Notes: generated by a model not told the origin, from the sequence alone. 64,000 nt of DNA from an uncultured Clostridia bacterium (GCA_944393375.1 CALXZX010000001.1:6988-70987); one strand, 5' to 3'. Positions 3,076 to 56,940 are shown, counted from the stretch's first letter. Numbers and translations: made by a program.

Positions 3076-3081
3076 AAGCTA

Positions 3082-3105: not shown

Positions 3106-3113
3106 ATTTTTTT

Positions 3114-3712
3114 CTAATTTTTATAATTACTAGAAATTCTTTTTTCTAACATTTTTACATTACTATATACTTCATTCCAATCAAATACTCTATTAATGTT
3201 ATTTCCAATACATTGTTTATTGTAATAAGTATCAAGTACAATAACAGGAATAAATTCAGACATTTCATTTATATATTGAGGATCATCTTCCATTAAAATA
3301 TCTAATTTGTTTTCAATGCAAAAAGGTTTTTTTTCAATTTTTCCTACTAATAATTTATCATAAACAATTCCATGTTCTTTCAAAAATTTTTCCGTGGTTT
3401 CATAAGGTGTTTTAAACATTGGAACAGCTCTTGATGATATAATATAAATTTTATGTCCTTCATCTTTTAGTTTTCTAATTACTTCTTTTGAATTTTCTTT
3501 AACTTGGGCTTGTAATACAGCTTCCTCTAAATATCTTATACAAAAATCCATATTTTCTTCTGGTGTCCAGTCACACAAATTATAGCTCGCAAATCCATCT
3601 TCGTGCATTTTTAAATCTCTTTTTACAACTGTATCATTATATCTTTTACAATATTTTTTAATATGGGTGTTGTGTCTGTTATAGTATTATCAATATCAAT
3701 TCCTATATTCAT
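3114..3712 (-). pseudogene. HAD-superfamily 5'(3')-deoxyribonucleotidase-like hydrolase, frameshifted in an A6/T6 homopolymer
   Basis: N-terminal 29 codons MNIGIDIDNTITDTTPILKNIV... (HAD motif I DxDxT) start at 3712 with RBS aggagg and hit a stop; the downstream 164-aa ORF (3114-3608) continues in the +1 frame. One extra A in the tract at 3654-3659 would give a continuous MNIGIDIDNTITDTTPILKKYCKRYNDTVVKRDLKMHEDGF... Confidence 0.6.
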
Positions 3713-3780
3713 ATTTTCCTCCTTAATTATTTATCATTGCTTAAAATTATACCACAAAATATACTTTCTTTCAATAAAAA

Positions 3781-3820
3781 TAGTTTTATCTAAAAGTAGT
3801 TTTATCTAAAAGTAGTTTTT
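3781..3820. repeat. Tandem direct repeat, 16-bp unit tagttttatctaaaag x2.5
   Basis: Exact copies at 3781-3796 and 3797-3812 plus a partial third; 80 bp upstream of guaA start. Confidence 0.7.
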
Positions 3821-3900
3821 GTTTATATATCGTAGGTTTTTATTTACTTTATCGACAAATTGTGATATTATATATACATATTTTAAATTCGGAGGTAAAT

Positions 3901-5439
3901 ATGAAAGAAAATGAATTAATTTTAATCTTAGACTTTGGTGGACAATACAATCAATTAATTGCAAGAAGGGTTAGAGAATGTAATGTGTATTCTGAAGTTG
4001 TACCATACAATATTTCTATCGAAAAAATTAAAGAGAAAAATCCAAAAGGAATTATTTTTACAGGTGGACCTGCAAGTGTATATGGAGAAGATTCCCCTAA
4101 ATGTGCAGAAGGTATTTTTGATTTAGGTATTCCTGTTTTAGGAATTTGTTATGGTATGCAATTAATGACCTATACTTTAGGAGGAAATGTAGCAAGAGCA
4201 AATACAAGAGAATATGGGACAACTAAAGTAAACATTGATAACACATCTTCCCTATTCCAAGGATTTGAAACAACAAATGATTTCTTAATGAGTCATACAG
4301 ATTTTGTATCAGAGGTACCAAATGGGTTTAAAAATATTGGTTCAACAGACCATTGTCCAAATGCAGCAATGGAAAATGTAGAGAAAAAACTATATGGTAT
4401 TCAATTCCATCCAGAAGTAAACTTATCTGTTAATGGAACACAAGTGATTAAGAATTTCTTATTTAACATTTGTGGCTGTTCTGGAGATTGGCAAATTTCT
4501 TCTTTTGTAGAAGATAGCATTAAAACTTTAAAAGAAAAAATTGGAGATAAAAAAGCTTTATGTGCCCTATCTGGTGGTGTTGATTCATCTGTTGCAGCTG
4601 TATTGTTACATAAAGCAATTGGTAAAAACTTAACTTGTATCTTTGTTGATCACGGACTACTTCGTAAAAACGAAGGTGACGAAGTTGAAGAAGTTTTCAG
4701 AAATCAATTTGATATTAATTTAATTAGAGTAAATGCGAAAGACAGATTCTTAGCCAAACTTGCTGGTGTTACTGATCCAGAAAGAAAGAGAAAAATTATC
4801 GGAGAAGAATTTATTAGAGTTTTTGAAGAAGAAGCTAAAAAAATTGGAACTGTAGACTTTTTAGTACAAGGTACTATCTACCCTGATGTTATCGAAAGTG
4901 GTTTAGGAAAAAGTTCTGTTATTAAAAGTCATCACAATGTTGGAGGGCTTCCAGATTATGTAGATTTCAAAGAAATTGTAGAACCGTTAAGAAATCTATT
5001 TAAAGATGAAGTTAGAAAAACAGGATTAGAATTAGGAATACCAGAAAACTTAGTATTTAGACAACCATTCCCTGGACCTGGACTAGCTATTAGAGTGATT
5101 GGAGATATTACTGAGGATAAATTAGATATCCTAAAAGAAGCAGATAGCATTTTTAGAGAAGAAATTGCAAATGCTGGACTTCATAAATCTATTAATCAAT
5201 ACTTTGCAGTACTAACAAATTTAAAATCTGTTGGTGTTATGGGTGATGAAAGAACTTATGATTACACCATTGCCCTACGTGCAGTAGAAACGACAGATTT
5301 CATGACTGGCGTTTGGAGCAAAATTCCTTATGAAATACTAGAAAAAGTTTCTTCAAGAATTGTTAATGAAGTAAAACATGTTAATAGAGTAGTTTATGAT
5401 ATTACTTCAAAACCACCTGCAACAATTGAATGGGAATAA
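3901..5439 (+). CDS. guaA: GMP synthase (glutamine-hydrolysing)
   Basis: [26 protein letters not shown]... GATase domain plus ATP-PPase SGGVDSSV motif; RBS ggaggtaaat before ATG 3901 (track ORF starts earlier at 3862). Confidence 0.95.
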
Positions 5440-42260: not shown

Positions 42261-44357
42261 CTATTCCTCCTCTTTAATAATGTTCTTGCTACCAATATAT
42301 GTTGCTAAGAAATATAATCCATAGATGATACCAATAATAATAGCAGTTACTATCACAGAAGGTAATAAATCGCTTGGAGATGCTAATGCAGCAAGCATTG
42401 ACAATATAAATTTAATTCCAAATATAGAATGTATAATCGCAAGAGCTAATGGTAACATGAAAAATATAAATATCTGTCTAAATAATGCTCGATTGATCAT
42501 CTTTTCATCACAACCGATTTTTCTTAAAATGGTATATCTTTGTTTGTTATCAGAACTTTCTGTCAATTGTTTTAATGCTAAAATGGCAGAACTTGCAATT
42601 AAGAAGATAACCCCTAGATAAATCGCAATAAATATGATAATGGTTGCTAATCCTTTACTTGCTTCTATTAAACTAATTTTTGTCATTCCATCTAGCTCTA
42701 TACCTTTTTGATCTAAATTGTTCAATAGTGTATTATTCTCTGCTTCTGTAAATGTTTTTTCTATTTCTTCTTTTTCTTCATCTGTTTCGGCATTATAATT
42801 TGCTGCTAAAAATTGTTCTTCTTTCCATTCTTCTTTTAATTCAAAACTATCTGGAACTAATATAATTCCTGTATTCACATGACTTGTAGACATTTCAATA
42901 AATCCACTTTTACATTCGTTATATTTAGCATGTAAGGTTTTTCCATTAATTTGTATGGTTGCGCTTTCTTTTAAGGCTTGATTTCTTAATTCTTTCATAT
43001 TATCGAAATCGCAAAGTACAATATATTCATCATTATTTAGGCTATATTGTTCTTGCCCATAAAGTTCTGCAATTTTATTATAATCTGACACTTTTATAAC
43101 TTCTTCTGGCATATCATACAAAAGCATTGAAAATTGTGCTTTTGCTTGTTCATAATAATTTCCTAAACTATATTTCAAAGTCCATTCAGGAATCGCATAA
43201 ATTGGAATTTCCACAACATCTTTCAATAAATTCATATCATATCCATTGGTTTCTAATGTATAAGAGATTGGATATTTTGAATCTTCAATTTGTTCTTCTG
43301 TAGGATATATCATCTGACCTGTATAGGAATCTTCATAACTTTGTGGTAAATTAGCAGTCTTATATAAATTAACATCTACTGGCGTCATTTCTTCCAATTC
43401 TGAATCCAATGAATTTTGTATAGATAAACTACTAGATAAAACACTTATCGTCATAAATAGCATTAAGCAAATAACAGACATACTGATAACGGTTGTATTT
43501 ATCTTATTATTTAATTGTCTTAATACAAACATATTGGTTCCTTTTAGATATATCTTTTTTCTTGTTTGTATGATTCTTAATATAAATCCTGATAAAGACC
43601 AGAATACACCTATTGTTCCTACAATTCCCATTAAAATTGGCACTAACATTTTTTCTTCTGTATTTAATTCATAGATGCCACCTGTAACTATATAATAAGC
43701 ATATCCTAACAATCCTGCTGAAATTAAGAATATGATAATAGAGATGATTGGATTTTTAATTTTTACTTTTTCATTTTTTCTAACAGCTGTCAATAAATTA
43801 ATTAATTTGTATCTTGAAATAGTAAGTGTATTAAATATCATAACAGCTATATACATAACTGCAAAATAAATACAAGTTTTAATACAAGCATCTTTTGAAA
43901 ATACAAAGGTGAATTCACTCATATCTGCTTGAAAAAGTTTAGCTACTAGTATAGACATAAATTGAGAACCAAATACACCTATAAAAATACCAACAATTAA
44001 TGAAATGATTCCTACTAATATGGTTTCTATCAATATAATTTTTGATATCTGCCTTCTTCCCATCCCTAATGTCATATAAATACCAAATTCTCTTTTTCTT
44101 CTATTTACTAAGAAGTTATTAGCATATACAATTAAAAATCCAAGTACAATGGCAATAAATACAGATACCATTCCTAACATACTAATCATGAGTTTTATCA
44201 TATCTCTTGTGGATTCAGACACTTCTAACATAGCTTGTTGACTATCTAAAGAGTTAAACATATAAAAGATAGCAACACCTAATACTAATGTTAAAAAATA
44301 AATGGCATAATCTTTAAAACTTTTTTTCATGTTTTTTACAGATAATTTAAATAACAT
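42261..44357 (-). CDS. BceB-type ABC transporter permease (FtsX-like, 10 TM with large extracellular loop)
   Basis: 698 aa, FtsX-fold repeats, overlaps upstream ATPase gene. Confidence 0.85.
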   Translation of the reverse strand: MLFKLSVKNMKKSFKDYAIYFLTLVLGVAIFYMFNSLDSQQAMLEVSESTRDMIKLMISMLGMVSVFIAIVLGFLIVYANNFLVNRRKREFGIYMTLGMGRRQISKIILIETILVGIISLIVGIFIGVFGSQFMSILVAKLFQADMSEFTFVFSKDACIKTCIYFAVMYIAVMIFNTLTISRYKLINLLTAVRKNEKVKIKNPIISIIIFLISAGLLGYAYYIVTGGIYELNTEEKMLVPILMGIVGTIGVFWSLSGFILRIIQTRKKIYLKGTNMFVLRQLNNKINTTVISMSVICLMLFMTISVLSSSLSIQNSLDSELEEMTPVDVNLYKTANLPQSYEDSYTGQMIYPTEEQIEDSKYPISYTLETNGYDMNLLKDVVEIPIYAIPEWTLKYSLGNYYEQAKAQFSMLLYDMPEEVIKVSDYNKIAELYGQEQYSLNNDEYIVLCDFDNMKELRNQALKESATIQINGKTLHAKYNECKSGFIEMSTSHVNTGIILVPDSFELKEEWKEEQFLAANYNAETDEEKEEIEKTFTEAENNTLLNNLDQKGIELDGMTKISLIEASKGLATIIIFIAIYLGVIFLIASSAILALKQLTESSDNKQRYTILRKIGCDEKMINRALFRQIFIFFMLPLALAIIHSIFGIKFILSMLAALASPSDLLPSVIVTAIIIGIIYGLYFLATYIGSKNIIKEEE

Positions 44358-45114
44358 CGTTCAAATCACCTCCAAGAAGTGTTTGTACTTCAATTATCTT
44401 TTCAAAGAATTGTTTTCTAGTATCTTCTCCTTTTACTAACTCATTAAAGATTTTTCCATCTTTAATAAAAATAATCCTATCCGCATAACTTGCTGTGAAA
44501 GCATCATGTGTAACCATTAAAATAGTTGCTCCTAAATTTCGATTTAAGTGTTCAAAAGTTTCTAATAATTGTCTTGCAGATTTACTATCTAGTGCACCTG
44601 TTGGCTCATCTGCTAAAATCATTTTTGGATTTGTGATAATGGCTCTTGCTGATGCCACCCTTTGTTTTTGTCCACCTGATATTTGATATGGATATTTATT
44701 TAAAATATCTGATATTTCTAGTTTTTCTGCTACTTCTTTTACTTTTTTATCAATTTCATGTGCATTTACTTTTTGAATGGTTAATGCCAATGCTATATTT
44801 TCATAAGCAGTTAATGTATCTAATAAATTAAAATCTTGGAATATAAAGCCTAATTCTTCTCTCCTAAATTTGTTTAATTTATTCCCTTTTAGTTTCGTAA
44901 TATCTTGGTTATTAATAATAATCTTTCCTGCTGTTACTCTATCAATCGTTGAAATACAGTTTAATAAGGTTGTTTTTCCTGAACCTGACGCACCCATGAT
45001 TCCAACAAATTCCCCTGTTTCTACATTAAAACTAATTCCTGCAATTGCTTTTGTTAAATTGGATTTGTTTCCATAGTATTTTTCTATGTTTTTCACTTCT
45101 AATACATGACTCAT
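44347..45114 (-). CDS. BceA-type ABC transporter ATP-binding protein
   Basis: GASGSGKTTLLN Walker A, LSGGQKQRVASARAI signature, ILADEPTGALD Walker B. Confidence 0.9.
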   Translation of the reverse strand: MSHVLEVKNIEKYYGNKSNLTKAIAGISFNVETGEFVGIMGASGSGKTTLLNCISTIDRVTAGKIIINNQDITKLKGNKLNKFRREELGFIFQDFNLLDTLTAYENIALALTIQKVNAHEIDKKVKEVAEKLEISDILNKYPYQISGGQKQRVASARAIITNPKMILADEPTGALDSKSARQLLETFEHLNRNLGATILMVTHDAFTASYADRIIFIKDGKIFNELVKGEDTRKQFFEKIIEVQTLLGGDLNDVI

Positions 45115-45186
45115 ATATATAAACCTCCATTTATCTTTTATTCTGTATTTATTATACGGCTTATTCTTTTTTCTTTCTATTGTTTA

Positions 45187-45215
45187 ATCTTACATTTAGA
45201 TTACATTTTTGTAAG
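45187..45215 (-). promoter_or_regulatory. Candidate BceR-type response-regulator box TTACA-N4-TGTAA (+ third half-site TGTAAG) upstream of bceA-like gene
   Basis: Minus strand ttacaaaaatgtaatctaaatgtaag ~30 nt upstream of TATAAT at 45151-45156. Confidence 0.4.
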
Positions 45216-45258
45216 AAAGGCGTGCGTTAAAGAAATTAAAGATTTCTATATATAAAGA

Positions 45259-45289
45259 AAAGGTAAGATATTTTTTGTATCTTACCTTT
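45259..45289 (-). terminator. 12-bp perfect stem hairpin (aaaggtaagata-N7-tatcttaccttt) downstream of TA operon
   Basis: Seen directly; insulates TA module from bceA promoter. Confidence 0.45.
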
Positions 45290-45533
45290 GATTAGTTTAA
45301 TATAATACTATACCTCTTTTTATATATTTATTTTTACTTTTAAACTATTTCTTTTAGTCATTTGTTGATATCTTAAATTTTATAAATTTATTTTAAAAAA
45401 TCTATATTATGATATTATTTATAAAATTATTCTAAAATTTATAATATTCTTATCAATCTTTATTATTATTCACTCCTAACTTTTATGAATTATTAGTCTC
45501 CTTATTTATCTATTAAATTATAAAAATATAAAT

Positions 45534-46559
45534 TTAAAATTCATTAATTTCTTTTGCAAATGTAAATGGTATAATTTCATTATCTTTTGTTTCTATATAT
45601 GCTTTTTCTTTATGCATATAGTCAGAAATTTCATAACTTTTATAGTTTTTAAATTTATTTATAACTCTATCTATAATTTCTTTTTCTTCTTTTTTTAATT
45701 TTTTTATTTTATATTCTTCATTGAATTGAATTCTATATTCCTCATATTCACTTTCATTGATAAATAAATTAGATTTTATTGAAGATAATTCGATAATCTC
45801 TCTATGTCCTATTGGTAAAGCACCATATGGCATATGCTCATAAACTAATCCTGTAATCGTATATCCATTATTTTTATAACTCAAACTATCTATATACCAT
45901 AATAACTTCATTAATACAACTTTTTTCGTTGGTCCCATTTCTTTTGTAATATATCCTAATACATTTGTTAGATTTCCTATATCTAATACTGTATTACCAT
46001 TTATAATAGATTTTTCATTATATTGTATATACTTTGCAATTAATTCTTGTTCATTTAAAAAACTAATAATATTTTTATCAATCACTTCTTTGATATTTTT
46101 TTCAATTTCATCATATCGTTTAAACTTACTCCTATTCTTTTCTAATAATTTTAAAGCAAATAATGGATTATCATTCAATTCTCTAATCATATTATCAACA
46201 CTAGCATCTTGAATTTGTTTTGTTTCATATCTTGTTATAGTAATTTCACCTAAATTTAATAAATATGCCATTTCACTTTGTGTTAATTGATATTTCTCTC
46301 TTATTTTTTTTATTTCTTTTGATGTTAATAAATCTTTTTTCTTTCTATATTCATCTAAACTATTAATTAAATTAACATTCCACAAATCTCCAGACATAAA
46401 TATATTATTGTCTGGATATTTGTCACATTTATAATATAATTCTCTATATTTAATTTTTTCTCCTTTTATGATTGTTTCTCTTTCTTCTTCAATTAAACTA
46501 ACATCATGGTTTTCTTCACAAATAGAACAAAACATATTTACTTTCTTTAATTCTTTCAT
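45534..46559 (-). CDS. Antitoxin-like protein: MqsA-like Zn-ribbon + XRE-HTH N-terminus fused to Panacea (DUF4065)-like C-terminal domain
   Basis: MFCSICEEN...YYKCDKY Cys ribbon; LTSKEIKKIREKYQLTQSEMAYLLNLGEITITRYE matches MqsA HTH; C-terminal KKVVLMKLLWYIDSL...LVYEHMPYGALPIGH resembles DUF4065 core. Confidence 0.55.
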   Translation of the reverse strand: MKELKKVNMFCSICEENHDVSLIEEERETIIKGEKIKYRELYYKCDKYPDNNIFMSGDLWNVNLINSLDEYRKKKDLLTSKEIKKIREKYQLTQSEMAYLLNLGEITITRYETKQIQDASVDNMIRELNDNPLFALKLLEKNRSKFKRYDEIEKNIKEVIDKNIISFLNEQELIAKYIQYNEKSIINGNTVLDIGNLTNVLGYITKEMGPTKKVVLMKLLWYIDSLSYKNNGYTITGLVYEHMPYGALPIGHREIIELSSIKSNLFINESEYEEYRIQFNEEYKIKKLKKEEKEIIDRVINKFKNYKSYEISDYMHKEKAYIETKDNEIIPFTFAKEINEF

Positions 46560-46564
46560 TTTAT

Positions 46565-46969
46565 TTATTCTACCTCCTTTCCTCTATACGGAAATCTAGT
46601 TGTCTCATATTGAGCATAATGAAATGACATACATAATATAACCTTACTATCATAACTTTTGATTTTTATTTTTATATATACCTGTTTTTGATTATATATT
46701 TTAGAAAATACATAATAATCTCTTGAATTTCGATTTCTTTTATCTGGACAACATTCTACATATTCACTAAGCTTCAATTTTTTTAGTTCTTCTTTTACAT
46801 CTTCTGTTTCAAATCCCAAATCTCTTAGGCAATATTCTGTTGAATATTCTATTGGCTTATCTTCTCTTGGCATAATATCTAATCTTGATTCAGGAATTTT
46901 TAATATGTTTCTTACTTCTTTCAAAAATGTTTCTACATTTCCTTTTGTTGCTTGATATCCTTCTGCCAC
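46565..46969 (-). CDS. MqsR-like toxin (mRNA interferase family) candidate
   Basis: 134 aa; C-terminal QVYIKIKIKSYDSKVILCMSFH parallels MqsR YLKITVIHDVLIVSFK; toxin-first gene order as in mqsRA; GTG start with RBS aggaggtaaag. Confidence 0.45.
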   Translation of the reverse strand: MAEGYQATKGNVETFLKEVRNILKIPESRLDIMPREDKPIEYSTEYCLRDLGFETEDVKEELKKLKLSEYVECCPDKRNRNSRDYYVFSKIYNQKQVYIKIKIKSYDSKVILCMSFHYAQYETTRFPYRGKEVE

Positions 46970-46990
46970 TTTCTTTACCTCCTGTTTGCA

Positions 46991-47045
46991 TTAACTATCA
47001 ATTGATAGTTAACATCAGTATACACCCCATTCATAATTATGTCAA
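46991..47045 (-). promoter_or_regulatory. TA-operon promoter (TTGACA-17-TATACT) with 22-bp perfect palindromic operator TTAACTATCAATTGATAGTTAA just downstream
   Basis: Seen directly on minus strand; palindrome 46991-47012 overlaps the transcription start region. Confidence 0.55.
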
Positions 47046-47106
47046 TACTTTTATAGAAATTAATGATGCATTTAGAAAATGTCTACATCCTTTAACATCA
47101 TTCTAA

Positions 47107-48123
47107 CTACTTCAAATTCGTATAACTATTTTTAGGGAATATAATCCTTACTTCTGTTCCTTTATCTTTCTCTGAATTTAATTCTATTCCAAGACTTAAT
47201 TTATCACATAATTTTTTACACAAGTATAAGCCAATTCCAGTAGATTTTTGTCCTATCAATCTTCCATTTTCTCCTGTAAAACCTCTTTCAAATACTCTTG
47301 TAATCTCTCCTTTTTTTATTCCAATTCCATTATCTTGTATATATAAAATCACTTTATCATTTTTTGATCTTGCAAATATCTCTATTTTCTTATTTTCGTC
47401 TTTGGAATATTTAATTGCATTTTGTATAATTTGATTGATAATAAATGTTGCCCATTTACTATCTGTATAAACTTCATGTTCTAAATCTTTTAATTCTAAT
47501 GCCACTTTTTCATTTAGTAATGTACTTTTATTTTTTAATATAGCACCATTTACAATTTCTTTTAGATTGGTTTTTGTGATGATATAATCTTTTTCAACAG
47601 CATTACTTCTTGCATAAAATAAGGCTTGTTCTGTATAATTTTCTACCTTGTCTAGTTCTTCATCTATACTTTTAGTTACTTCATTTTTATGGTTTTCAAT
47701 AATCATTTTACTTGCCGCAATTGGTATTTTTACTTCATGAATCCATAATTCTATATATTCTTTATAATCTTCTTGAATACGTTTATAGTAATTTACATTT
47801 TCAATCATAGACTTTCCTGCATCTTGCATCACTTCTTTTAAAATTTTGCCTTCTGAAAAGTTAGCATTTTTGATAATTTCAGAAATCAAATACTTTTCGT
47901 GTAAATCTTCCATATTATTTTTTAATTGATTATAAAAATGTTGTTTTCTTTTATATTCAACAAATATGGAAATAGCAATGACAATTATGATAATAGCAGC
48001 TATGTAAATTTGTGCAATCATTCCAATATGATAAGCAAGTAATAATATTTCTATACTAATTAATGCCAATATAACAGTTACAATTAGCAATACTTTATCT
48101 TTTATAAAATCTTTAAATTTCAT
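47107..48123 (-). CDS. Sensor histidine kinase (BceS-like, intramembrane-sensing)
   Basis: Two N-terminal TM, HisKA and HATPase_c motifs (...DNGIGI...GTGIGL). Confidence 0.85.
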   Translation of the reverse strand: MKFKDFIKDKVLLIVTVILALISIEILLLAYHIGMIAQIYIAAIIIIVIAISIFVEYKRKQHFYNQLKNNMEDLHEKYLISEIIKNANFSEGKILKEVMQDAGKSMIENVNYYKRIQEDYKEYIELWIHEVKIPIAASKMIIENHKNEVTKSIDEELDKVENYTEQALFYARSNAVEKDYIITKTNLKEIVNGAILKNKSTLLNEKVALELKDLEHEVYTDSKWATFIINQIIQNAIKYSKDENKKIEIFARSKNDKVILYIQDNGIGIKKGEITRVFERGFTGENGRLIGQKSTGIGLYLCKKLCDKLSLGIELNSEKDKGTEVRIIFPKNSYTNLK

Positions 48124-48815
48124 TTTAACAAATACCCCTGTCCTCTTTTCGTTTCTATTCTATCATGTAATCCTAATTCCTCTAATTTAGTTCTTAGTCT
48201 CTTTATATTGACATTTAATGTATTATCATCAATAAATTCTTCGCTTTCCCATAAATAATCCATGATTTCATCTCTTGATACTACTTCATTCTTATGAGTG
48301 CTTAAATAGTATAAAATATTATATTCATTTTTTGTTAAATCCATTTTCTCATTATCTTTTTCTATGGCTCTTTCTGCTATATTTAATACAAAACCATTAC
48401 AATCAATTTTTTCTGGGTTTCTTCCTGCATTTTGATTTCTTTTTAATAAACCATTTATCTTTGCAAGCAATATTTGTATGTTATATGGTTTTGTAACATA
48501 TTGGTCTGCTCCATAATTTAGGCTCATTAATTCATCAATTTCATTATCTCTACTTGTTACCATAATAATTGGGACATTAGATACTTTTCTTACTTCTTTG
48601 CAAACAAATTCTCCATCTGTATATGGCAAATTGATATCTAATAATACCAAATCAGCTTTTTCTTCTAGTATATCTTGTATCGTATTATCAAAGTTTTCTA
48701 ATGTTTTTGCTTTAAATCCATTCTTATTTAGAAATGTTTCTAACTCTTGCCTTAATTTTTTATCATCTTCAACAATTAATATTTTACTCATATCTCTCTT
48801 TCCTTTATTTATCAT
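48120..48815 (-). CDS. OmpR-family response regulator (BceR-like)
   Basis: Receiver LIVEDD...DLVLLDINLP, winged-helix C-terminus. Confidence 0.9.
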   Translation of the reverse strand: MINKGKRDMSKILIVEDDKKLRQELETFLNKNGFKAKTLENFDNTIQDILEEKADLVLLDINLPYTDGEFVCKEVRKVSNVPIIMVTSRDNEIDELMSLNYGADQYVTKPYNIQILLAKINGLLKRNQNAGRNPEKIDCNGFVLNIAERAIEKDNEKMDLTKNEYNILYYLSTHKNEVVSRDEIMDYLWESEEFIDDNTLNVNIKRLRTKLEELGLHDRIETKRGQGYLLK

Positions 48816-48847
48816 TTATACTTTATTGCTATTATACGAATTTTTAT

Positions 48848-50434
48848 TTATTTCGTCAAATGTTTTAATTTTATTAAAGCATTAAATTCTTCTTCAAGCT
48901 CTTTTTTTCTTTTATCATCTTTTGTCATTGCTAGTTCTGAAGTAATTTGTGATAGTTTAAAATCTAATAATAGTTTATCATTTTCATGATGATTTTGTTG
49001 TTTTTTACTTTTTTCTTTTTCATATTGTAAATAAGAAGAATAATTTCCTTCATATTCTACGATTTTATGATTTTTTATCACTAAAATATCTGTTGCAATA
49101 TGATCAATAAATGCTTTATCATGTGTAACAAATAAAATCGTTCCATTATATTCTGTTAATAGCTTTTCTAAACTTTCAATTGATTCTATATCTAGAAAAT
49201 TAGTAGGTTCATCTAATATAAGTAAATGATTGTCTGATACTAATATCTTAGCAATCGATACTTTTACCCTTTCTCCACCACTTAAATCTTTTATCTTTTT
49301 TTCCAAATCTTTATCTTTAAATAGAAGATTGGCTAATGTGTTTTTTACAACCATTTCTGATTGATTCGTATCTTGCATCACATTTTGTAATACATTTTTA
49401 CTAAAATCTAAGTTTGAAAAATCCTGTGAAAAATAGCCTATTTTTATATTGGGATTTACTTTTATCTGATGATTACCATTTATGATTTGGTTTATAAGTG
49501 TTGTTTTTCCTGCTCCATTTTCTCCTATTAAAGCTGTTTTTCTATTGGTTTTTACAACACAACTTGCATTTTCAAATAACAGTTTATCTCCTAATTTTAT
49601 ATTTAAATTTTCAATATATATTGCAATTTTATTTTTCATTCTTTCTTCTGTTTGATATTTCATATATATTTTTTTATGATTTTGTGGTTTTTCTTTTACT
49701 TCTAATTTATTTAATCTTGTCTGTAATGCATTTGTGTGTCCTTCCAATTTTTCTCTTATATTTTCAACACCTCTTTTATGTAGTCTTGCCTCAGAATTTC
49801 CCATTCGCTTTGGTGTTTTTCGAATTTCTTTTGCTGTGTTTTTTGAAACATGAATTGCTTTTTCTAACCTATATTTTTCATTTATATATTGCATATATTC
49901 AAATTCTTCTCTTTTTACTTCTGCCTCTTTTTGTAACTTATATTTTGAATAATTGCCCTCATATCTTTTTACTTTTCCATCTTTTATTTCAATAATTGCC
50001 GTACAAATTTCATCTAGTAAACTTCTATCATGAGATATGATTAGTATCGTTCCTTGATATTTTTTTAACTCTTTTTCAATATGAGTAATTCCATTCTTGT
50101 CTAAATTACTTGACGGTTCATCTAGTAATAGGATTCCGTTTTTATCTAATACTTTTTTATGAAATGCTTCTTTCTTTTTTTCTCCACCACTTAAATTCCT
50201 ATTTTCATAATTGATTTTTTCAAATTGCTCCATATATATGATATTTTGCTTACGAATGATTTTTCCTGTATCTGGTTGTATTCTTCCAGCTATGATGTTT
50301 AATAATGTGGTTTTTCCTGAACCATTTTGTCCTACAATTCCTATTTTTTCATTTTCATATATTTTTAAATCGTCAATTTCTAATATTTTTCTATCTCCAT
50401 AATTTTTTGATATATTTTTTAATTCTAATACCAT
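48848..50434 (-). CDS. ABC-F family ATPase with ~100-aa inter-domain linker (candidate antibiotic-resistance ARE ABC-F; ribosomal protection type)
   Basis: Two ABC cassettes without TMD (GQNGSGKTTLLN... / GENGAGKTTLIN...), Lys/Arg-rich linker KYRLEKAIHVSKNTAKEIRKTPKRMGNSEARLHKRG; likely start MVLELKN at 50434 with SD aaaggaggag. Confidence 0.8.
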   Translation of the reverse strand: MVLELKNISKNYGDRKILEIDDLKIYENEKIGIVGQNGSGKTTLLNIIAGRIQPDTGKIIRKQNIIYMEQFEKINYENRNLSGGEKKKEAFHKKVLDKNGILLLDEPSSNLDKNGITHIEKELKKYQGTILIISHDRSLLDEICTAIIEIKDGKVKRYEGNYSKYKLQKEAEVKREEFEYMQYINEKYRLEKAIHVSKNTAKEIRKTPKRMGNSEARLHKRGVENIREKLEGHTNALQTRLNKLEVKEKPQNHKKIYMKYQTEERMKNKIAIYIENLNIKLGDKLLFENASCVVKTNRKTALIGENGAGKTTLINQIINGNHQIKVNPNIKIGYFSQDFSNLDFSKNVLQNVMQDTNQSEMVVKNTLANLLFKDKDLEKKIKDLSGGERVKVSIAKILVSDNHLLILDEPTNFLDIESIESLEKLLTEYNGTILFVTHDKAFIDHIATDILVIKNHKIVEYEGNYSSYLQYEKEKSKKQQNHHENDKLLLDFKLSQITSELAMTKDDKRKKELEEEFNALIKLKHLTK

Positions 50435-50436
50435 AA

Positions 50437-50471
50437 AAACTCCTCCTTTAATCATATTAAAGAAGGAGTTT
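50437..50471 (-). promoter_or_regulatory. Leader terminator/attenuator hairpin whose 3' arm contains the ABC-F Shine-Dalgarno
   Basis: Minus-strand RNA AAACUCCUUCUUUAAU-AUG-AUUAAAGGAGGAGUUU then UUUAUGG (16-bp stem, one G-U). Confidence 0.55.
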
Positions 50472-50545
50472 ATTATTTATCACTTTAAACCTCATCTAGT
50501 TTTTGCATATATTTTTATATGTTCATTTGGTAGTTTTACATACAT
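50457..50545 (-). promoter_or_regulatory. Two overlapping leader uORFs (MYVKLPNEHIKIYAKTR* and MRFKVINNKLLL*, ATGA stop/start overlap); the second terminates inside the 5' arm of the terminator
   Basis: Read directly from minus strand; first preceded by aagg SD-like sequence. Confidence 0.35.
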
Positions 50546-50669
50546 AAATACCTTAAAATTTGCATTATTAATAAACCATTCTAAAATATGATTATATCTT
50601 ATTTTATATTTTCTAGTTTATTAATAATCATTTTACCACCATTTTAACTTTTCTTTTCAATTCATTTCT

Positions 50670-50698
50670 ATTGTAACATATCTTTATTCATTTTTCAA
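50670..50698 (-). promoter_or_regulatory. Sigma-A promoter TTGAAA-17-TACAAT for ABC-F leader
   Basis: Consensus-like hexamers with 17-bp spacing, ~235 nt upstream of ABC-F start. Confidence 0.5.
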
Positions 50699-50706
50699 TA
50701 GAATAC

Positions 50707-51366
50707 TTACTCTGTTGTTGAATCTCCTATATAGTAAATTTTTCTTTTGAATATAAACTTATTGGTTTTTTTCCAATAGAATAATAGTCCACCAATAACA
50801 AAAACAATTGCCAATACAGCCAATGTAATATGAGAATATTGTTCAAAAATACCAAGCATATTTGCCCAATTTTCTCCTACTATATTTCCAATTATTAATA
50901 AAACTGTGTTCCATATAGCAGAACCTGAGATTGTATACATTAAGAATTTACCCATAGGCATTTCACTCATTCCTGCTGGTATAGAAATTAAACTTCTAAC
51001 AATTGGAATAAATCTACAGAAAAATACCGTTTTGTTTCCTTTTTCGTCAAACCATTTATCTGCTTTATCAATATCTTCTGTTTTTAATCTAAGCATTTTT
51101 CCAACTTTTCCTGAAACAAGTTTTTTTAATCTTTCTTTATTTAATATTCTTCCTACATAATATAAAACAATTGCACCAACAACTGACCCTAAGGTTGCTG
51201 CTAGTATCATAACCACTATATTAAGATTTGTATGTGTAGTCATAAATCCACCAAATAATAATACAGCTTCTGATGGAATTGGTGGAAAAATATTTTCTAC
51301 TGCGATTAATAAAAACACTCCCAAATATCCGAATTGTTCCATTATAGATAACATTATCTCTTGCAT
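50707..51366 (-). CDS. DedA-family membrane protein
   Basis: LGVFLLIAVENIFPPIPSE...RFIPIVRSLISIPAGM DedA motifs. Confidence 0.8.
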   Translation of the reverse strand: MQEIMLSIMEQFGYLGVFLLIAVENIFPPIPSEAVLLFGGFMTTHTNLNIVVMILAATLGSVVGAIVLYYVGRILNKERLKKLVSGKVGKMLRLKTEDIDKADKWFDEKGNKTVFFCRFIPIVRSLISIPAGMSEMPMGKFLMYTISGSAIWNTVLLIIGNIVGENWANMLGIFEQYSHITLAVLAIVFVIGGLLFYWKKTNKFIFKRKIYYIGDSTTE

Positions 51367-51378
51367 ATATTTTCTCCT

Positions 51379-52323
51379 TTAATCATTCATTTCTTTTTCA
51401 CCATTATATTCATTTACTAAATATAATGGTCTATTTTTACTTTCATTAAAGATTCTTCCTAAATATTCCCCTACAATTCCAAATAATAATATTTGTATTC
51501 CAGAGAAAAATAAGATTAACAAGATGATGGCTTGATATGCTTGTATTGCTGTACTTGTTACAATACATTTTGCAATCACATATACAAAATACACAAACAA
51601 AACAACAAATGTTGGTATACTGATATATGTAGATATTCTAAGTGGTGATGTCGTAAATGATGTAATTCCATCAATTGCTAAATCTACTAACTTTTTGTAA
51701 TTCCACTTTGTTTTTCCTGCAATTCTTGGGTCTCTATCATATAATACTTCTTTTTTCTTATACCCTATCCAACTAAACATACTTTTAGATTGTCTTTGAG
51801 ATTCTCTCATTTTTTTCAATGCATTTACACATCTTCTGTCTAATAATCTAAAATCTCCTGTATCTTCTTGAATTGGTATATTAGTTAAATGTTGTAATAC
51901 CCTATAATACATTTTGGATGTAAATTTCTTTAACCAAGTTTCTCCTTTTCTTGAATTTCTTTTGGCATAAACATCATCATATCCTTCTTCCCAGTATTTT
52001 ACCAATTCTGGAATCAATTCTGGTGGGTCTTGTAAATCTGCATCCATAAAAATAACACAATCACCTGTTGCATAATCTATTCCTGCAATCATAGCTATTT
52101 CTTTTCCAAAGTTTCTTGAAAAATCAACATAACTAATTCTGTTATCTTTTTGTCTATATTCTTTTATTAAATTGATTGTATTATCTTTACTTCCATCATT
52201 TATAAATAAGATTTCAAATTCATAATGTTTCATAGAACCCATTAGTTTTTCTAATCTTTCATATAAATGTGGTAATGATTCTTCTTCATTATATGCTGGT
52301 ATGATTATTGTTATTTTTTTCAT
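51379..52323 (-). CDS. Polyprenyl-phosphate glycosyltransferase (GT2, GtrB/CsbB-like, two C-terminal TM)
   Basis: IIIPAYNEE...INDGSKDNT...MDADLQDPPELIP; start at MKKITIII (RBS aaggaagtg). Confidence 0.8.
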   Translation of the reverse strand: MKKITIIIPAYNEEESLPHLYERLEKLMGSMKHYEFEILFINDGSKDNTINLIKEYRQKDNRISYVDFSRNFGKEIAMIAGIDYATGDCVIFMDADLQDPPELIPELVKYWEEGYDDVYAKRNSRKGETWLKKFTSKMYYRVLQHLTNIPIQEDTGDFRLLDRRCVNALKKMRESQRQSKSMFSWIGYKKKEVLYDRDPRIAGKTKWNYKKLVDLAIDGITSFTTSPLRISTYISIPTFVVLFVYFVYVIAKCIVTSTAIQAYQAIILLILFFSGIQILLFGIVGEYLGRIFNESKNRPLYLVNEYNGEKEMND

Positions 52324-52762
52324 CAATTTCACTTCCTTGTTTGTTTGCTTTTTTGTTTGTTTTAAATGCAAAGAATTTACTAATAAAAAAGTTTAGTATA
52401 ACAACAATTACTGTAATGGTTACTTTTGTTATGACATATTCAACATTCAATACTGTATATAGCAAAAATACACCTGCCATTTCTATAGCCATTGTAAAAG
52501 ATCTTCCTAAGATAAATTTTAAAAATTCTGTCCATTTTTCTTTTGCTGTTTCAGCAGTGGAATTAAATACCATTTTACGATTAGTAAAATAAGCAAATAA
52601 AATAGATATAATAATTCCAATTGTACTGGCTAAATTCCCTTCAACTTGAAATGCCTTTACCAATACAGTTGAAACAGCTATATTGATTAATGTTGTTAGT
52701 ACACCAAATATTAAATATGATATTGTTTCTCTTGTACATAGTTTTTTTATGATTTTTTCCAT
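52289..52762 (-). CDS. GtrA-family membrane protein (flippase-associated)
   Basis: 157 aa, 4 TM, GtrA-like. Confidence 0.7.
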   Translation of the reverse strand: MEKIIKKLCTRETISYLIFGVLTTLINIAVSTVLVKAFQVEGNLASTIGIIISILFAYFTNRKMVFNSTAETAKEKWTEFLKFILGRSFTMAIEMAGVFLLYTVLNVEYVITKVTITVIVVILNFFISKFFAFKTNKKANKQGSEIDEKNNNNHTSI

Positions 52763-52904
52763 TTCTTTTCTCTTTCTTTATTATTTTATTTTTTAATTCA
52801 ATATTATTTCAATAATTTTGTCTATTTAATTATATATTTTTTAAAATCTTACTTATTATATCAATAAATATATTCCTTGTAAAGGTTATAGCTATTTCTT
52901 ATTC

Positions 52905-53802
52905 TTAAAAATAATAACTTTTTATTATTCCTGGAATGAATAATAATATATATATCATTTTATTTTTCATTCCTTTTATGTTTTTCATTTTATATTGTTT
53001 TGTTAAATAACTAAATAAAATGTAATGTTTTATAACATATAATCTCTTTTTAAAAGAAACATCTTGCATATCATGTTGTTCTAAAATTTCTTTAAAATAT
53101 ACATAATGACCATATGGATTTTCCTTAAAAACTTTTTTTATATTTTTCGTATATCCATCTTCTTTATATTCACATATCATAATTGGTTTATTGATACATT
53201 TCATTTTATATTTTAAATCCATTTCATGATACATTCTAGCTTCAGTTGAAAACTTTTCATGATTTTCTATCTTGTACTGATATTGTTTTCGGACCTCTGC
53301 AAAAAACACAATTGCTTTTTCTCCCGTTTCTCCGTTCTTTAAAATACAAATCAAACATAGTAGTTTCTTCTTTTTGAAATAGGTTTCCAATATTATTTCC
53401 TTTTAAATCATATTTTAAAAAACATAAACCATATACATCTTTTCTTTCTTTTGTCTCATAATAAGTTTGTAAAATATCATAAAATGCATTATCTGAAAAT
53501 ATATCATCAGAATCACATTCTACAATCAAATCTCCATCAGCATATTGAACAACATGATTGATAGCTGACATTTTTCCTTGATTTTCTTGTTTATGATATT
53601 GTATTTCTATCTTTTTTTTATTTATGTACTGATTGATTACTTCTTCTGTATTATCTGTTGAACCATCATCTATAACGAGCCATTGTACTTGTACACTTTG
53701 CCTTATTTCATCATTTAGTTTTAAGTTTTTCACAATGCTGTTGTATAAATTACCAAGCATATTTGCTCTATTATATGTTGGTGTAATAATGGATAATTTC
53801 AT
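52905..53802 (-). pseudogene. Family-2 glycosyltransferase, frameshifted at a T5/A5 tract (53316-53320)
   Basis: N-terminal GT2 fragment MKLSIITPTYNRANML...VIDDGSTDNT...ECDSDDIF ends ...FDLYFKERRNGRKS*; remainder continues in +1 frame (AIVFFAEVRKQYQ...); deleting one T in aattgctttttctccc would join them. Confidence 0.6.
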
Positions 53803-53804
53803 AA

Positions 53805-54912
53805 TTATTCTTCCTTTAATAATTTTTCTAATTCTTTGATGATATGTTGATTTTCATATGTTTGTTTCTTCTCATCAAATGTTTTTATATTATTTTCAAT
53901 GATATATTTTAATTTATTATAAATTTCATGTTCATCATTTTCTACAATCACTGCATTTTTATAATTCTCAACTGCTTCTCTTGCTGCTGTATTGGTAATG
54001 ATAATTGGCTTATTCAAAATTTTTGCTTCTTCTAGCACCATACCATATCCTTCAAATTTAGAAAGTAAGCAAAATATATCTGCTTGTTTCATATATGGGT
54101 ATGGATTGTCTTTGGCACCTAATAAGAAAAATGTTTCTTGTAAATGTTCGTCTTTTATTAGTTTTTCTAATTTTTCTCTTTCTGGTCCATCACCAATAAT
54201 ATAAAATTTATTATGAAAATGATTTGCAATTAATTCTCTGTGGATACGAATTAATCTATCAATTCCTTTTTGTTCTACTAATCTTGCTACTGTCAAGAAA
54301 TTAATTTGGTTATTATCAAAATTAAAATCTATCTTTTCTTCTGCTTTTTCTATTACTTTTTGTGCCTCTATATAATTATAGATAACTTCTTCTGTCGGTT
54401 TCATATTCGGATATCGTATATCAAATACTTCTTTATTATCTTTACTAACAAATATCAACTTTTGATATTGATTATAGATTTTTCTGTCTATCATTAATTT
54501 TAATTTTGCCTTTAAACCATTTCCATACACTTTTGAAATATCATTATGAATCCAAGCAATTTTCTTTGTATGTTTGTTTTTCGTACTAAATAGCCTTGTA
54601 ATCGGTCCTTCCAAAAAAGCTATTTCTATATCATAATCACCTTGAATATATTTTTTATAATATTTCTTTTGGAAGCATAAGATTTTTAATGATATTTTTA
54701 TTTTTTCCAACTTACTGAATTCTTTGTATGGTTTGTCAAATATTCTTTTTACTTTTATCTTATTATTTAAACTTTTTTCTAATTCACCTTTTCCATAAAT
54801 CGTAAATATAGTGATATCAAATGTATCACATAAACGATTTACCATATCGACTAATACTCTCTCTGCTCCACCGAATTGTTAAACTCGTTATTCCAAATAC
54901 TATCTTTTTCAT
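53805..54912 (-). pseudogene. GT4-family glycosyltransferase, N-terminus frameshifted by single-base insertion near 54872-54873
   Basis: ATG at 54912 gives MKKIVFGITSLTIRWSRESISRYGKSFM*; removing the C/G in caattCggtgg yields the canonical GT4 start MKKIVFGITSLTIGGAERVLVDMVNRL... continuous with the 346-aa ORF (EX7E-type C-terminal motif GYGMVLEEA). Confidence 0.6.
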
Positions 54913-54982
54913 ATTTTCATGTATTCCTTTCTTAAAAAACAAATCTGATTGGAAAAGAATTAAATTCTAATTATTTTCTAAT

Positions 54983-55969
54983 CTAAACGAATTTTTCTTG
55001 TAACTTATCACGTATAAATTTAATTCTCGCTAAATTTGTATATAGTTTTAATGTAGGATTATTGACACTTCTCATATACAAATTCTTTAATCCTTTGTCT
55101 TTTAAATAGGTATTTTTCTTCCAATTAGGAAATTGTGTATTTAAGGATTTCCATGCAAATTGGATAATCTCTTTTCTTTTCTTTTTATCTTCAATCATAA
55201 CCATTCTAAGCATAGAACTACATAAGATATATCTTGCATAAGTATATTCCATTTCTTCTTTATACTCATCAAACAAGTTGTTTGTTTTGTAATATTCGAT
55301 AACATGTTCTAAAACATCAATAATTTCTTTCGTTCTCGTATTTTGCACATTTGAGATAGAATTTTCTCTTTGTACATAATGGATAAATGATTTTTGAACA
55401 ATTCCATAATGATGTATGAATGGTAATAGTTTATAGAAAAATTCCACATCTTCATATCGATATCCTTTTGGAAATTCTAAATGGTTATCTTGCACAATTT
55501 CTCTTTTAATCAATTTATTCCATGCGACAACTCTTGTATGGATAAACATTTCTTTTTTATTGCTATATTGTTTTCCTTTGCTTTCTAATGTCTTATCTGG
55601 ATATTCCCATAAAAAATCACATTCTACATAATCCAAATCTTCTTTTTTGGCTTTATTATACATTTCTTCATACATATTGATTTCAACATAATCATCAGAA
55701 TCTAAAAAGGCAATATATTCCCCCTTAGCATGTGGAATCGCATAATTTCTAGCATCTGATAATCCACCATTTTCTTTTTCCAAATAGATAATTTTATTCG
55801 GATATTTTTCTACAAATTGTTTGGCAATTGCCTCTGATTTATCTTGACTTCCATCATTCACAAGCAAAATTTCAATATCATCTAATGTTTGATTTACTAA
55901 AGATCGCAAACATTTTTCTATATAATTTTCTACATTATAAAATGGAACAATGATACTAACCTTTATCAT
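54983..55969 (-). CDS. Family-2 glycosyltransferase
   Basis: VSIIVPFYNVENYIEKCLRSLVNQT...LLVNDGSQD...FLDSDD. Confidence 0.85.
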   Translation of the reverse strand: MIKVSIIVPFYNVENYIEKCLRSLVNQTLDDIEILLVNDGSQDKSEAIAKQFVEKYPNKIIYLEKENGGLSDARNYAIPHAKGEYIAFLDSDDYVEINMYEEMYNKAKKEDLDYVECDFLWEYPDKTLESKGKQYSNKKEMFIHTRVVAWNKLIKREIVQDNHLEFPKGYRYEDVEFFYKLLPFIHHYGIVQKSFIHYVQRENSISNVQNTRTKEIIDVLEHVIEYYKTNNLFDEYKEEMEYTYARYILCSSMLRMVMIEDKKKRKEIIQFAWKSLNTQFPNWKKNTYLKDKGLKNLYMRSVNNPTLKLYTNLARIKFIRDKLQEKFV

Positions 55970-56940
55970 GATTTAACCTTTCTTCTTAAATTTAAATACC
56001 ATTTAATATTTAAGCTTAAAATGATTTTCCTAAATAATTGTCTTATATCTTTTGCCTTAATATTTTTTGTCATTTTTCTTTTTCTAATTTCTTTTATATA
56101 TTGCTTTTGATCTTTTTTCTCTAATGTTTCTATTTTTAATAAAATGGCATTTGTATAATAAATTTTTAATGTTTCTGCTGTTTTTTTGTTTAATTTATAT
56201 CTTTCAATTTTTAACAAAGCCTCATCATACTGTTTTAGAGCATCATTTGCTTTTTTCTTTGTTTTTTCATAACTGTCATTTCTTGTAATGCTTCCTTTTA
56301 CTTGTACATAATGATATCCATAAAAATTAATAGAAATCATTGTTTTGGCAAGTACGATTACAAATGGAATTAATCCAAAATCCTCATGTTCTGTTCCCAC
56401 CTTAAACTCTAATTTGTTCTTTGTAAATATCTCCTTTTTTATCACATACACACAAGGAGAGTCTAATAAAACATCTGTAGCATATAATTTTTCAAATCCT
56501 TCTTCTCCTGTTTTATCTTCAAATACAGGTCCACTAACTGTTTCTATGACATTTCCTTTTTCATCTTCTCTTTGCAATTTAAATTTAATTAAATCCATAC
56601 CTTTTTCCATATATTGTTTTACTAAACCATATAAATGGATATCTAAGTAATCATCTGCATCTAAAAACAAGATATATGTTCCTTTTGCTTTTTTTATTCC
56701 ATAATTTCTTGTATCTGCAACCCCTGTATTTTTCTTTTTGTAATAAGAAATGATTTTTGGATTTTTTTCTTTAAATTCTTGTATAATTTTATCAGATTCA
56801 TCTGTACTTCCATCATTAACTAATACCATTTCTAAATCTTCATCTTTTTGTTTCAAAACAGATTCCATGCATCTTTTTAATGTTTTTTCCGCATTATATA
56901 CGGGAATAATGACACTTAATTTTTTCAATATTCTCTCCAT
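55966..56940 (-). CDS. Family-2 glycosyltransferase
   Basis: LSVIIPVYNAEKTLKRCMESVL...LVNDGSTD...FLDADD. Confidence 0.85.
   Translation of the reverse strand: MERILKKLSVIIPVYNAEKTLKRCMESVLKQKDEDLEMVLVNDGSTDESDKIIQEFKEKNPKIISYYKKKNTGVADTRNYGIKKAKGTYILFLDADDYLDIHLYGLVKQYMEKGMDLIKFKLQREDEKGNVIETVSGPVFEDKTGEEGFEKLYATDVLLDSPCVYVIKKEIFTKNKLEFKVGTEHEDFGLIPFVIVLAKTMISINFYGYHYVQVKGSITRNDSYEKTKKKANDALKQYDEALLKIERYKLNKKTAETLKIYYTNAILLKIETLEKKDQKQYIKEIRKRKMTKNIKAKDIRQLFRKIILSLNIKWYLNLRRKVKS

Follow-up and report, generated by a model that had tools for sequence, protein, structure and literature searches.

The DNA stretch analyzed here, 64,000 nucleotides (nt) from an uncultured Clostridia bacterium of the chicken gut (GCA_944393375.1, CALXZX010000001.1:6988-70987; the window, by which we mean this stretch at its full length), contains a gene for an ABC-F ATPase, and upstream of it a leader with a promoter, short upstream open reading frames (uORFs) and a hairpin that holds the Shine-Dalgarno (SD) sequence of the gene. 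Leader, promoter, uORFs, hairpin and gene are all on the minus strand (Table 1). We consider it probable that the gene encodes an ABC-F protein of the antibiotic resistance (ARE) type and lies behind a ribosome-dependent attenuator with three mutually exclusive helices: an anti-antiterminator (P1), an antiterminator, and a terminator that sequesters the SD. This reading builds on the sequence elements themselves, their conservation, covariation in all three helices, and a predicted switch in the fold of the nascent transcript. An initial annotation of the locus had already recognized an architecture of the ARE type, and missed the anti-antiterminator and the antiterminator.

Table 1. Features of the ABC-F locus, in the order of transcription (positions counted from the first nucleotide of the window).
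Feature	Position	Strand	Description
Promoter	50670..50698	-	-35 TTGAAA 50698-50693; 17-nt spacer; extended -10 TGTTACAAT 50678-50670
Mini-uORF1	50628..50642	-	ATGGTGGTAAAATGA (MVVK, then stop); UGA overlaps the uORF2 AUG as AUGA
uORF2	50599..50631	-	ATGATTATTAATAAACTAGAAAATATAAAATAA (ATGATT...AAATAA; MIINKLENIK, then stop); conserved candidate sensor
P1 (anti-antiterminator), 5' strand	50614..50630	-	uORF2 codons 1-6; from minimum-energy fold
Antiterminator, 5' strand	50569..50593	-	box AAUCAUAUUUUAGAA plus UGGUUUAUUA; overlaps P1 3' strand
P1, 3' strand	50561..50578	-	UGGUUUAUUAAUAAUGCA; from minimum-energy fold and pair counts
Variable spacer	50476..50560	-	holds the first 20 nt of uORF3, which continues into the hairpin 5' arm
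uORF3	50495-50457	-	MRFKVINNKLLL, then stop; UAA inside the hairpin 5' arm; the last uORF of the initial annotation
Antiterminator, 3' strand	50450..50475	-	UAAUAAACUCCUUCUUUAAUAUGAUU; terminator 5' flank, 5' arm and loop
Predicted terminator/SD hairpin	50437..50471	-	AAACUCCUUCUUUAAU-AUG-AUUAAAGGAGGAGUUU; 16 base pairs including one G-U, 3-nt loop
ABC-F SD	50449-50440	-	AAAGGAGGAG, within the hairpin 3' arm
U-run	50435..50439	-	UUUUU between SD and AUG; three U pair with AAA at the stem foot
ABC-F gene	48848..50434	-	528 amino acids; Vga/CplR-like (ARE1-like) predicted ribosomal protection protein

The promoter, TTGAAA-17-TACAAT, is present where the initial annotation had placed it. Its -10 element has an upstream TG, and the promoter scores 10/12. 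Taken together, promoter-like matches show no enrichment in the AT-rich surroundings, with 25 against an expected 32.7; this one is kept, as the pattern TTGnnn-17-TGnTAnnAT, among relatives down to about 52% protein identity. Transcription would start near 50662, which gives the leader a predicted length of about 228 nt. The ABC-F gene starts with the ATG at 50434, at an SD spacing of 7 nt. The ATG at 50455, picked by an open reading frame (ORF) lister, was rejected as the start, being inside the hairpin loop and without an SD. In several relatives that have a one-base insertion, this loop ATG meets an immediate stop (ATG ATT TAA); database versions of 535 amino acids are therefore over-extended, and the true length is 528. 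The 535-residue versions are found among many database homologues (P0005, P0011-P0028), where gene callers took the ATG in the hairpin loop (MIKGGVF-M...).

For comparison, we collected 18 distinct leaders, including that of the window, upstream of genes whose proteins are 52-92% identical. They stem from genome contigs, from contigs of database homologues and from a pattern scan of metagenomes, and are referred to by locus numbers (L001 and so on) where they have to be told apart. Kept in these leaders are the promoter, an SD-like AAAGAAAGG followed by (A/T/C)(T/C)GGTG, uORF2, a box AATCATATTTTAGAA, and the SD hairpin with its T-run. The spacer between the box region and the hairpin, put at 20-110 nt, differs even among the relatives of about 90% identity, and is down to about 10 nt in L085. 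No matches to Rfam models with E <= 1 were found in 44000-56000, and none at gathering score across the 64-kb window; no rRNA, riboswitch or known leader was matched by these models in 1-64000.

Among the uORFs, uORF2 stands out by its conservation. An ORF of 9-12 codons is present at this position in 18/18 leaders, and the predicted duplex between its SD and the 3' end of 16S rRNA ranges from -5.4 to -13.0 kcal/mol over the 18 (-8.2 kcal/mol in the window, compared with a background 5th percentile of -5.2). The peptides read MIINKLENIK, MIIINKLENIK, MIIINKLDNIK, MIIINKLQQIK, MIINKLKYMK, MIINKLENEK, MKITNKIYK, MKINNYSKKEK, MKINNLILKIIK, MSSTNK(S/L)NK(T/I)K and MRITNKIN(R/Q)TK. Their first residues follow the pattern M-[I/K/R/S]-[I/S]; they do not have the three-codon form known from cplR (MR[I/M]) and vmlR (MIN). 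Inspection by eye did not reveal arrest motifs of the macrolide type (+x+) or the phenicol type in the uORF2 peptides that were consistent across lineages.

Downstream of the spacer, the initial annotation had described a 16-base-pair hairpin whose 3' arm is the ABC-F SD, directly followed by a U-run and the start codon, and this is what we find, in the window and, for the hairpin, in 18/18 leaders. The conserved stem comprises 13-16 base pairs, and its predicted energy is about -18 kcal/mol. Pairing is conserved in 96.9% of cells of the alignment, and one pair, C-G in 10 sequences, is changed to U-A by compensation in 5. Folding of the window leader as a whole gives -49.4 kcal/mol, compared with -29.1 +/- 3.8 for shuffled sequences (z = -5.4; 0/200 shuffles as good). 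The sequestered SD also extends beyond the 18 leaders. Upstream sequence could be used for 83 related ABC-F loci, which represent Clostridia, Bacilli and other groups, and in 76 of them the SD is paired in a local hairpin. The AATCATATT-type box, by pattern search, is present in only 18/83 loci, all of the window's own clade.

Covariation argues for all three helices. Pairs were counted in a MAFFT alignment of the 18 leaders from which the variable spacer had been removed, and as a control the 3' partner was slid by 1-3 columns. P1 and the terminator together have standard pairs in 90.9% of cells, compared with 49-62% after sliding, and 19 cells are changed on both sides, compared with 8.2 +/- 2.6 in shuffles. 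In the core of P1, 87% of cells are paired, and both partners have changed in 4 pairs (the rows of L089 and L085 are out of register in P1); for one of these pairs, 9 sequences have U-A and 7 have C-G. The antiterminator, with 22 pairs, is paired in 96.2% of cells, compared with 44-54% in the slid control. Of these pairs, 8/22 are changed on both sides, compared with 1.8 +/- 0.8 in shuffles, and 0/500 shuffles reach the observed value. In L089, the terminator loop has changed from AAUAUGAU to CAUAAUAU, and the box has changed in step, from AUCAUAUU to AUAUUAUG.

Nascent transcripts were mimicked by cutting the leader just before the 3' arm of the terminator. When such transcripts are folded free, P1 forms, and not a single nucleotide of the terminator 5' arm pairs with the box in 17/18 leaders, the exception being the minimal leader of L085. 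When codons 1-3 of uORF2 are occluded, 15-22 nt of the arm and loop pair with the box and the adjoining segment in 18/18 leaders. Scanning the ribosome along the window leader showed that the antiterminator is predicted to form for every P-site position from codon 1 to the last sense codon of uORF2, and also for the codon just upstream of uORF2; with a ribosome on the uORF1 start, it is not formed. As positive control, leaders of the cplR type were treated in the same way, and the expected switch was seen in 4/6 (L048 from Metaclostridioides, L056 from C. sporogenes, L036 and L040). For the remaining two, L015 and L018, the boundaries had been wrongly set.

Two experimentally studied systems guide the interpretation. 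In the cplR leader of C. difficile (Obana et al., 2023), the terminator stem holds the SD of the main ORF, and the transcript ends at the start codon; mutation of the uORF start abolishes induction, mutation of the terminator stem makes expression constitutive, and mutation of the polyU tract leaves regulation intact (PMC10201436). In the vmlR leader of B. subtilis (Takada et al., 2022), an anti-antiterminator, an antiterminator and a terminator have been dissected by mutation (PMC9226507). By analogy with these experiments, we infer for the window translation of uORF2, stalling by drugs, termination, a drug spectrum and a resistance phenotype.

The resulting model is as follows. When drug is absent, ribosomes would translate the 10 codons of uORF2 and then leave. 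P1, formed between uORF2 codons 1-6 and UGGUUUAUUAAUAAU, would lock the downstream strand and bury the AAUCAUAUUUUAGAA box. The 16-base-pair terminator would then form, and transcription would end at UUUUU, just before the AUG; any read-through mRNA would keep its SD buried. Inducing drugs would be those that halt ribosomes at initiation or shortly afterwards. Arrest on uORF2, at any position between the start codon and the penultimate codons, would leave the 5' strand of P1 occupied by the ribosome. The freed box and the adjoining segment could then pair with the terminator 5' flank, arm and loop while these are leaving the polymerase, so that the terminator would be blocked, transcription would go on and the SD would be exposed.

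Several points weigh against this model. The 18 leaders amount to about six lineages, and some of the changes counted as covariation are therefore inherited. The window sequence also served to derive the structures, an advantage for them over the slid controls. Folding with and without the uORF occluded, which the initial annotation had proposed as a check, gives the switch in nascent transcripts, but not in full-length leaders at equilibrium: with uORF2 occluded, the terminator stays among the leaders listed, L090 being the sole exception seen. The switch would thus have to be kinetic. The equilibrium fold of the full leader is uninformative for a co-transcriptional switch, and its outcome is the one expected of a kinetic attenuator. 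The sensor uORF has 9-12 codons, compared with 3 in cplR, vmlR and vga(A). The ABC-F protein fails the cut-offs of both named subfamily models, Vga (NF000170, its best subfamily score, 550.9 bits against 725) and CplR (NF043038, 523.3 bits against 780), so that the drug spectrum is an extrapolation. Finally, the terminator is AT-rich, with 4 G-C pairs, its U-run is short, and a simple terminator scanner run on the region called 0 terminators at the hairpin. We read the miss as a probable artefact of the scanner's rules, since the maximal stem takes three of the five U and leaves too few T; with a 13-base-pair stem, the terminator tail reads UUUUUAUG.

The same features of the hairpin could be taken to mean that control is purely translational, as in ermC, with the hairpin only masking the SD and the T-run being no more than AT-rich spacer. 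L085, which has only UUUU, fits this idea, and the polyU mutant of cplR, still tightly regulated, demonstrates that SD masking alone can suffice (PMC10201436). Nevertheless, we regard purely translational control as unlikely. A run of at least 4 T, often 6-8, lies between the paired SD and the start codon in 71/83 related loci, and the cplR transcript of C. difficile has its 3' end at the start codon (PMC10201436). Moreover, the antiterminator takes up the hairpin's 5' arm and loop, which is what a co-transcriptional decision requires.

Whether the attenuator senses ribosomes on uORF2 or elsewhere is a separate question, for which the other two uORFs have to be considered. The initial annotation had noted short uORFs with an ATGA stop/start overlap, and these are uORF1 and uORF2, with the GGUGG of uORF1 doubling as the SD of uORF2. 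Starting with ATG, GTG or TTG, uORF1 is found in 17/18 leaders, its stop overlapping or abutting the uORF2 start (AUGA in 13 leaders, UAAUG in 2; in L003 the stop is two bases upstream). It is absent in L030, which has a single uORF with a strong SD. By analogy with the 3-codon uORFs of cplR (MRI), vmlR (MIN) and vga(A) (MIN), uORF1 with its 4 codons (MVVK) could be the sensor in place of uORF2. In most relatives its SD is indeed better (GAAAGG, -8.1 kcal/mol), and the motif ATGGTGG...AAATG recurs in some Clostridium leaders of the cplR type (L036, L040). In the window, however, the SD of uORF1 is degenerate (-3.0 kcal/mol). Its third codon is free to vary (GTA, GGA, GAG, ATG, AAA, ACG, and TGA in L003), and in four leaders its ATG is replaced by ATA or ACG, leaving only GTG. 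A ribosome on the uORF1 start frees no antiterminator in the predicted folds of the window, L001-L005, L030 and L087-L091. Furthermore, the conserved published uORF in L036 and L040 is the downstream MRI, not the upstream MVD. Taken together, these observations make a sensor role of uORF1 improbable.

The uORF1-uORF2 overlap is kept in 15/18 leaders, although the codons of uORF1 vary freely and its length changes. It is possible, if rather doubtful, that the overlap serves as a termination-reinitiation relay, which would feed ribosomes to a sensor start that is buried at the foot of the anti-antiterminator. If so, the relay, together with a sensor uORF that has grown from 3 codons to 9-12, would constitute a two-uORF design that has not been described for ARE ABC-F attenuators. 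Such a design could widen the range of inducing arrest positions, and perhaps of drug classes.

The initial annotation had singled out the last uORF, uORF3, and had placed its end in the hairpin 5' arm, where its UAA is indeed located. A ribosome that terminates or stalls at this UAA might melt the hairpin and expose the SD, with uORF3 (MRFKVINNKLLL) rather than uORF2 as the operative element. The beginning M(R/K)FK... is kept in the six sequences of the clade with at least 90% identity (window and L001-L005), and in L007 a gene for 246 amino acids ends at the equivalent stop in the arm, so that it is in principle plausible for a terminating ribosome to unmask the SD. The predicted duplex for the uORF3 SD, however, is at +1.1 kcal/mol in the window and at best at -2.0 in relatives, compared with a background median of -1.1 and with -12.0 for the SD of the main ORF. 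An in-frame ATG is missing in 12/18 leaders, that is, outside the six sequences just mentioned: L081 and L083 have uORF3 cut to MR and a stop, and L082, L030, L050, L085 and L087-L094 lack it. Its beginning lies in the freely varying spacer, which in L085 is almost deleted. SD strength and poor conservation rule out uORF3 as sensor, and we give very little credence to a mechanism that depends on it. What stands of the proposal is that a uORF may act as sensor, with the conserved second member of the coupled pair, uORF2, in that role.

The protein has two ABC ATPase domains (Pfam ABC_tran twice), and a membrane domain was not found. In the translation, the motifs GQNGSGKT, LSGGEK and LLLDEP are readable for domain 1, and GENGAGKT, LSGGER and LILDEP for domain 2. 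The basic inter-domain linker, put at about 100 residues by the initial annotation, comprises about 104 (28 K+R compared with 16 D+E; isoelectric point 9.9), and aligns to the linker of VgaA_LC except for one 2-residue gap at the tip. The protein passes NF000355, the NCBIfam model for ribosomal protection ABC-F proteins, with 487.1 bits against a cut-off of 380. With the housekeeping models, the protein stays well short of the cut-offs (368 against 599 for EttA, 277 against 900 for Uup), as it does with NF011646, which is named only "ABC-F family ATPase" (285 against 762). Best matches in the PDB are VgaA_LC (1e-113) and Lmo0919/VgaL (2e-98), both aligned over the full length; MsrE and VmlR come next, and housekeeping proteins only after the resistance factors. 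Among named genes on plasmids, vga(A) and vga(C) are the nearest, with about 42% identity of their products; CplR (C. sporogenes locus L056) is about 41% identical. In keeping with the classification in the initial annotation, the protein is, by sequence, a Vga/CplR-like ARE protein of an uncharacterised clade outside both named subfamilies. Judged by homology, the predicted protection is most likely against antibiotics that target the peptidyl transferase center, namely pleuromutilins, lincosamides and streptogramin A. That it is instead an EttA-, Uup- or YdiF-like housekeeping protein, with a structured 5' untranslated region that has nothing to do with antibiotics, might be argued from the failed subfamily cut-offs and from the chromosomal cell-envelope neighborhood of the gene, but is most implausible given the model scores, the ranking of solved structures, and a leader that holds the full set of uORF, anti-antiterminator, antiterminator and terminator that is typical of ARE genes.

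Among the known systems, cplR is the closest in layout. Both leaders are similar in length (about 210-230 nt), both are from the class Clostridia, and both have a 5' hairpin that contains the regulatory uORF, an alternative antiterminator, and the SD in the stem of a 3' intrinsic terminator (in the window a predicted one) whose U-run abuts the start codon, so that transcriptional and translational attenuation would be combined. Demonstrated by experiment in cplR (PMC10201436), an SD within the terminator stem supports the attenuation architecture suggested in the initial annotation. The differences concern the protein, with its modest identity to CplR and a score below the CplR cut-off, and the details of the leader. 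The uORF has 3 codons (MR[I/M]) in cplR and 9-12 (MIINKLENIK) in the window clade; as antiterminator strand, leaders of the cplR type use an SD mimic such as AAGGAGAG, which pairs with the anti-SD arm, and the window uses the AAUCAUAUUUUAGAAUGG box; and the window adds an overlapping mini-uORF1 in front of the sensor uORF. Some features of the window leader recur in other leaders of the cplR type. In L036 and L040 from Clostridium, the uORF is preceded by the GGAAAATGGTGG...AAATG motif, and the leaders read GGAAAATGGTGGAC.GAAATGAGAATCTAA (uORF MRI, then stop); L015 and L018 have an AATCC(T)nTAGAA box after the uORF, ATGAGAAT(T/G)TAATCCTTTTTTAGAAC.

The vmlR leader shares with the window the succession of anti-antiterminator (SL-1, containing the uORF), antiterminator and terminator. 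There, a drug-arrested ribosome blocks the anti-antiterminator (PMC9226507), of which P1 would be the counterpart, and the vmlR uORF starts with M-I-N, near the M-I-I-N of the window. Unlike the window, vmlR has separate hairpins for termination (SL-3) and SD sequestration (SL-4), a NusG pause hairpin and a 3-codon uORF, and its product belongs to the ARE2 subfamily and not to the Vga-like group. As a side observation, a TTCTTT in the terminator 5' arm of the window (50459-50464), invariant in 18/18 leaders, fits the TTNTTT motif of NusG-dependent pausing in the vmlR leader (PMC9226507). The match may simply reflect the anti-SD nature of the arm.

The staphylococcal plasmid genes vga(A) and vga(A)LC encode the closest named resistance proteins, with a full-length alignment and a similar linker length. 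By sequence comparison alone, the vga(A)LC leader (L096) also resembles the 5' part of the window leader, in having an SD AAAGGAAAGGGTG, a uORF ATGATTAACTAA (MIN, then stop) and, after it, a box TAATCCTATTTTC; it reads AAAGGAAAGGGTGAAC...ATGATTAACTAATCCTATTTTC. In contrast to the window, its terminator (GCCTCC...GGAGGCTTTT) is separate from the SD of the gene, its uORF has 3 codons, and the gene is plasmid-borne in Bacilli. The window leader looks like a diverged relative of the leaders of L036/L040, L015/L018 and vga(A)LC, with a longer uORF and another antiterminator strand. More distantly, attenuators of the ermC and trp types use the same arrangement of four segments, in which segment 2 becomes free when the ribosome stalls on segment 1, and its pairing with segment 3 releases segment 4, which is the SD or the terminator 3' arm. 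They differ in the regulated gene, which is a methyltransferase or a biosynthetic operon rather than an ABC-F gene, and in the signal, which is macrolide-specific arrest by the nascent peptide or a lack of charged tRNA, compared with the inducers acting at or near initiation that we suppose here.

The logic of the attenuator is thus already known from cplR and vmlR, and unusual are only the uORF of 9-12 codons and the overlapping mini-uORF. For the most part, the locus confirms the generality of this logic in Bacillota, its predicted terminator sequestering the SD in the manner of cplR. Comparative work gains a natural variant, in which the uORF is longer and the antiterminator uses another strand; no new question arises from it. 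To the resistome of uncultured Clostridia, the locus also contributes an uncharacterised Vga/CplR-like gene for predicted ribosomal protection, behind an intact predicted inducible switch. Its closest relatives (about 90% identical) are from metagenome-assembled genomes of uncultured Clostridia, from chicken gut and other sources; two carry the label of chicken isolates. Poultry farming makes use of lincosamides, pleuromutilins and streptogramins, which makes such genes relevant to resistance surveillance.

Upstream of the ABC-F gene, at 50707-52371 on the minus strand, are genes for a GT2 glycosyltransferase (PgfS-like) and a DedA/UptA-like undecaprenyl-phosphate transporter, both below NCBIfam cut-offs. 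The pair is conserved in this position in the 76-92% relatives. The stop of the UptA-like gene, at 50707, is 9 nt before the -35 element of the ABC-F promoter, and no terminator is predicted between the two. Downstream, a 32-nt gap separates the ABC-F gene from an OmpR-type response regulator and a small SapS/BceS-like kinase (47107-48815, minus strand). They are followed by a toxin-antitoxin-like pair (45534-46969, minus strand) and then by a BceAB-like transporter (42261-45114). The pair consists of a 134-residue MqsR-like toxin, with a weak Pfam match just under the cut-off, and a 341-residue protein with an MqsA-type zinc ribbon/helix-turn-helix part and a SocA/Panacea domain.

In the initial annotation, the proximity of the BceRS-like two-component system had suggested a composite resistance island. 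Regulator and kinase follow the ABC-F gene in the window, in the relatives of about 90% identity (L001-L005), in L095, and in L085, where the ABC-F identity is 59% and the two genes are at 2675-4159 after a 16-nt gap. They do not follow it in L081, L083 and L092, and in the 76-79% relatives a metallophosphoesterase and an acetyltransferase occupy their position. The linkage of ABC-F and two-component genes as judged from these loci is recurrent, not obligatory, and hints only faintly at an island. Transcripts that pass the attenuator could conceivably continue into the two-component genes. A strong promoter-like TTGACG-17-TATAAT (11/12; 48831-48859, minus strand) overlaps the ABC-F stop, and could drive regulator and kinase independently.

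Two more distant relatives depart from the leader described here. In L007 (51% identity), the uORF leader is missing, and an ORF of 246 amino acids (1429-2194) has its stop codon, TAG, in the 5' arm of the conserved SD-sequestering hairpin, 25 nt before the ABC-F start. This arrangement suggests that a terminating ribosome would unmask the SD by translational coupling, rather than attenuation. In L006 (53% identity), a promoter-like TTGAAC-17-TATAAT and an SD hairpin of 9 base pairs are present at about 2900-3000, without uORF and box. In the protein clade, loss or replacement of the leader has thus occurred more than once.

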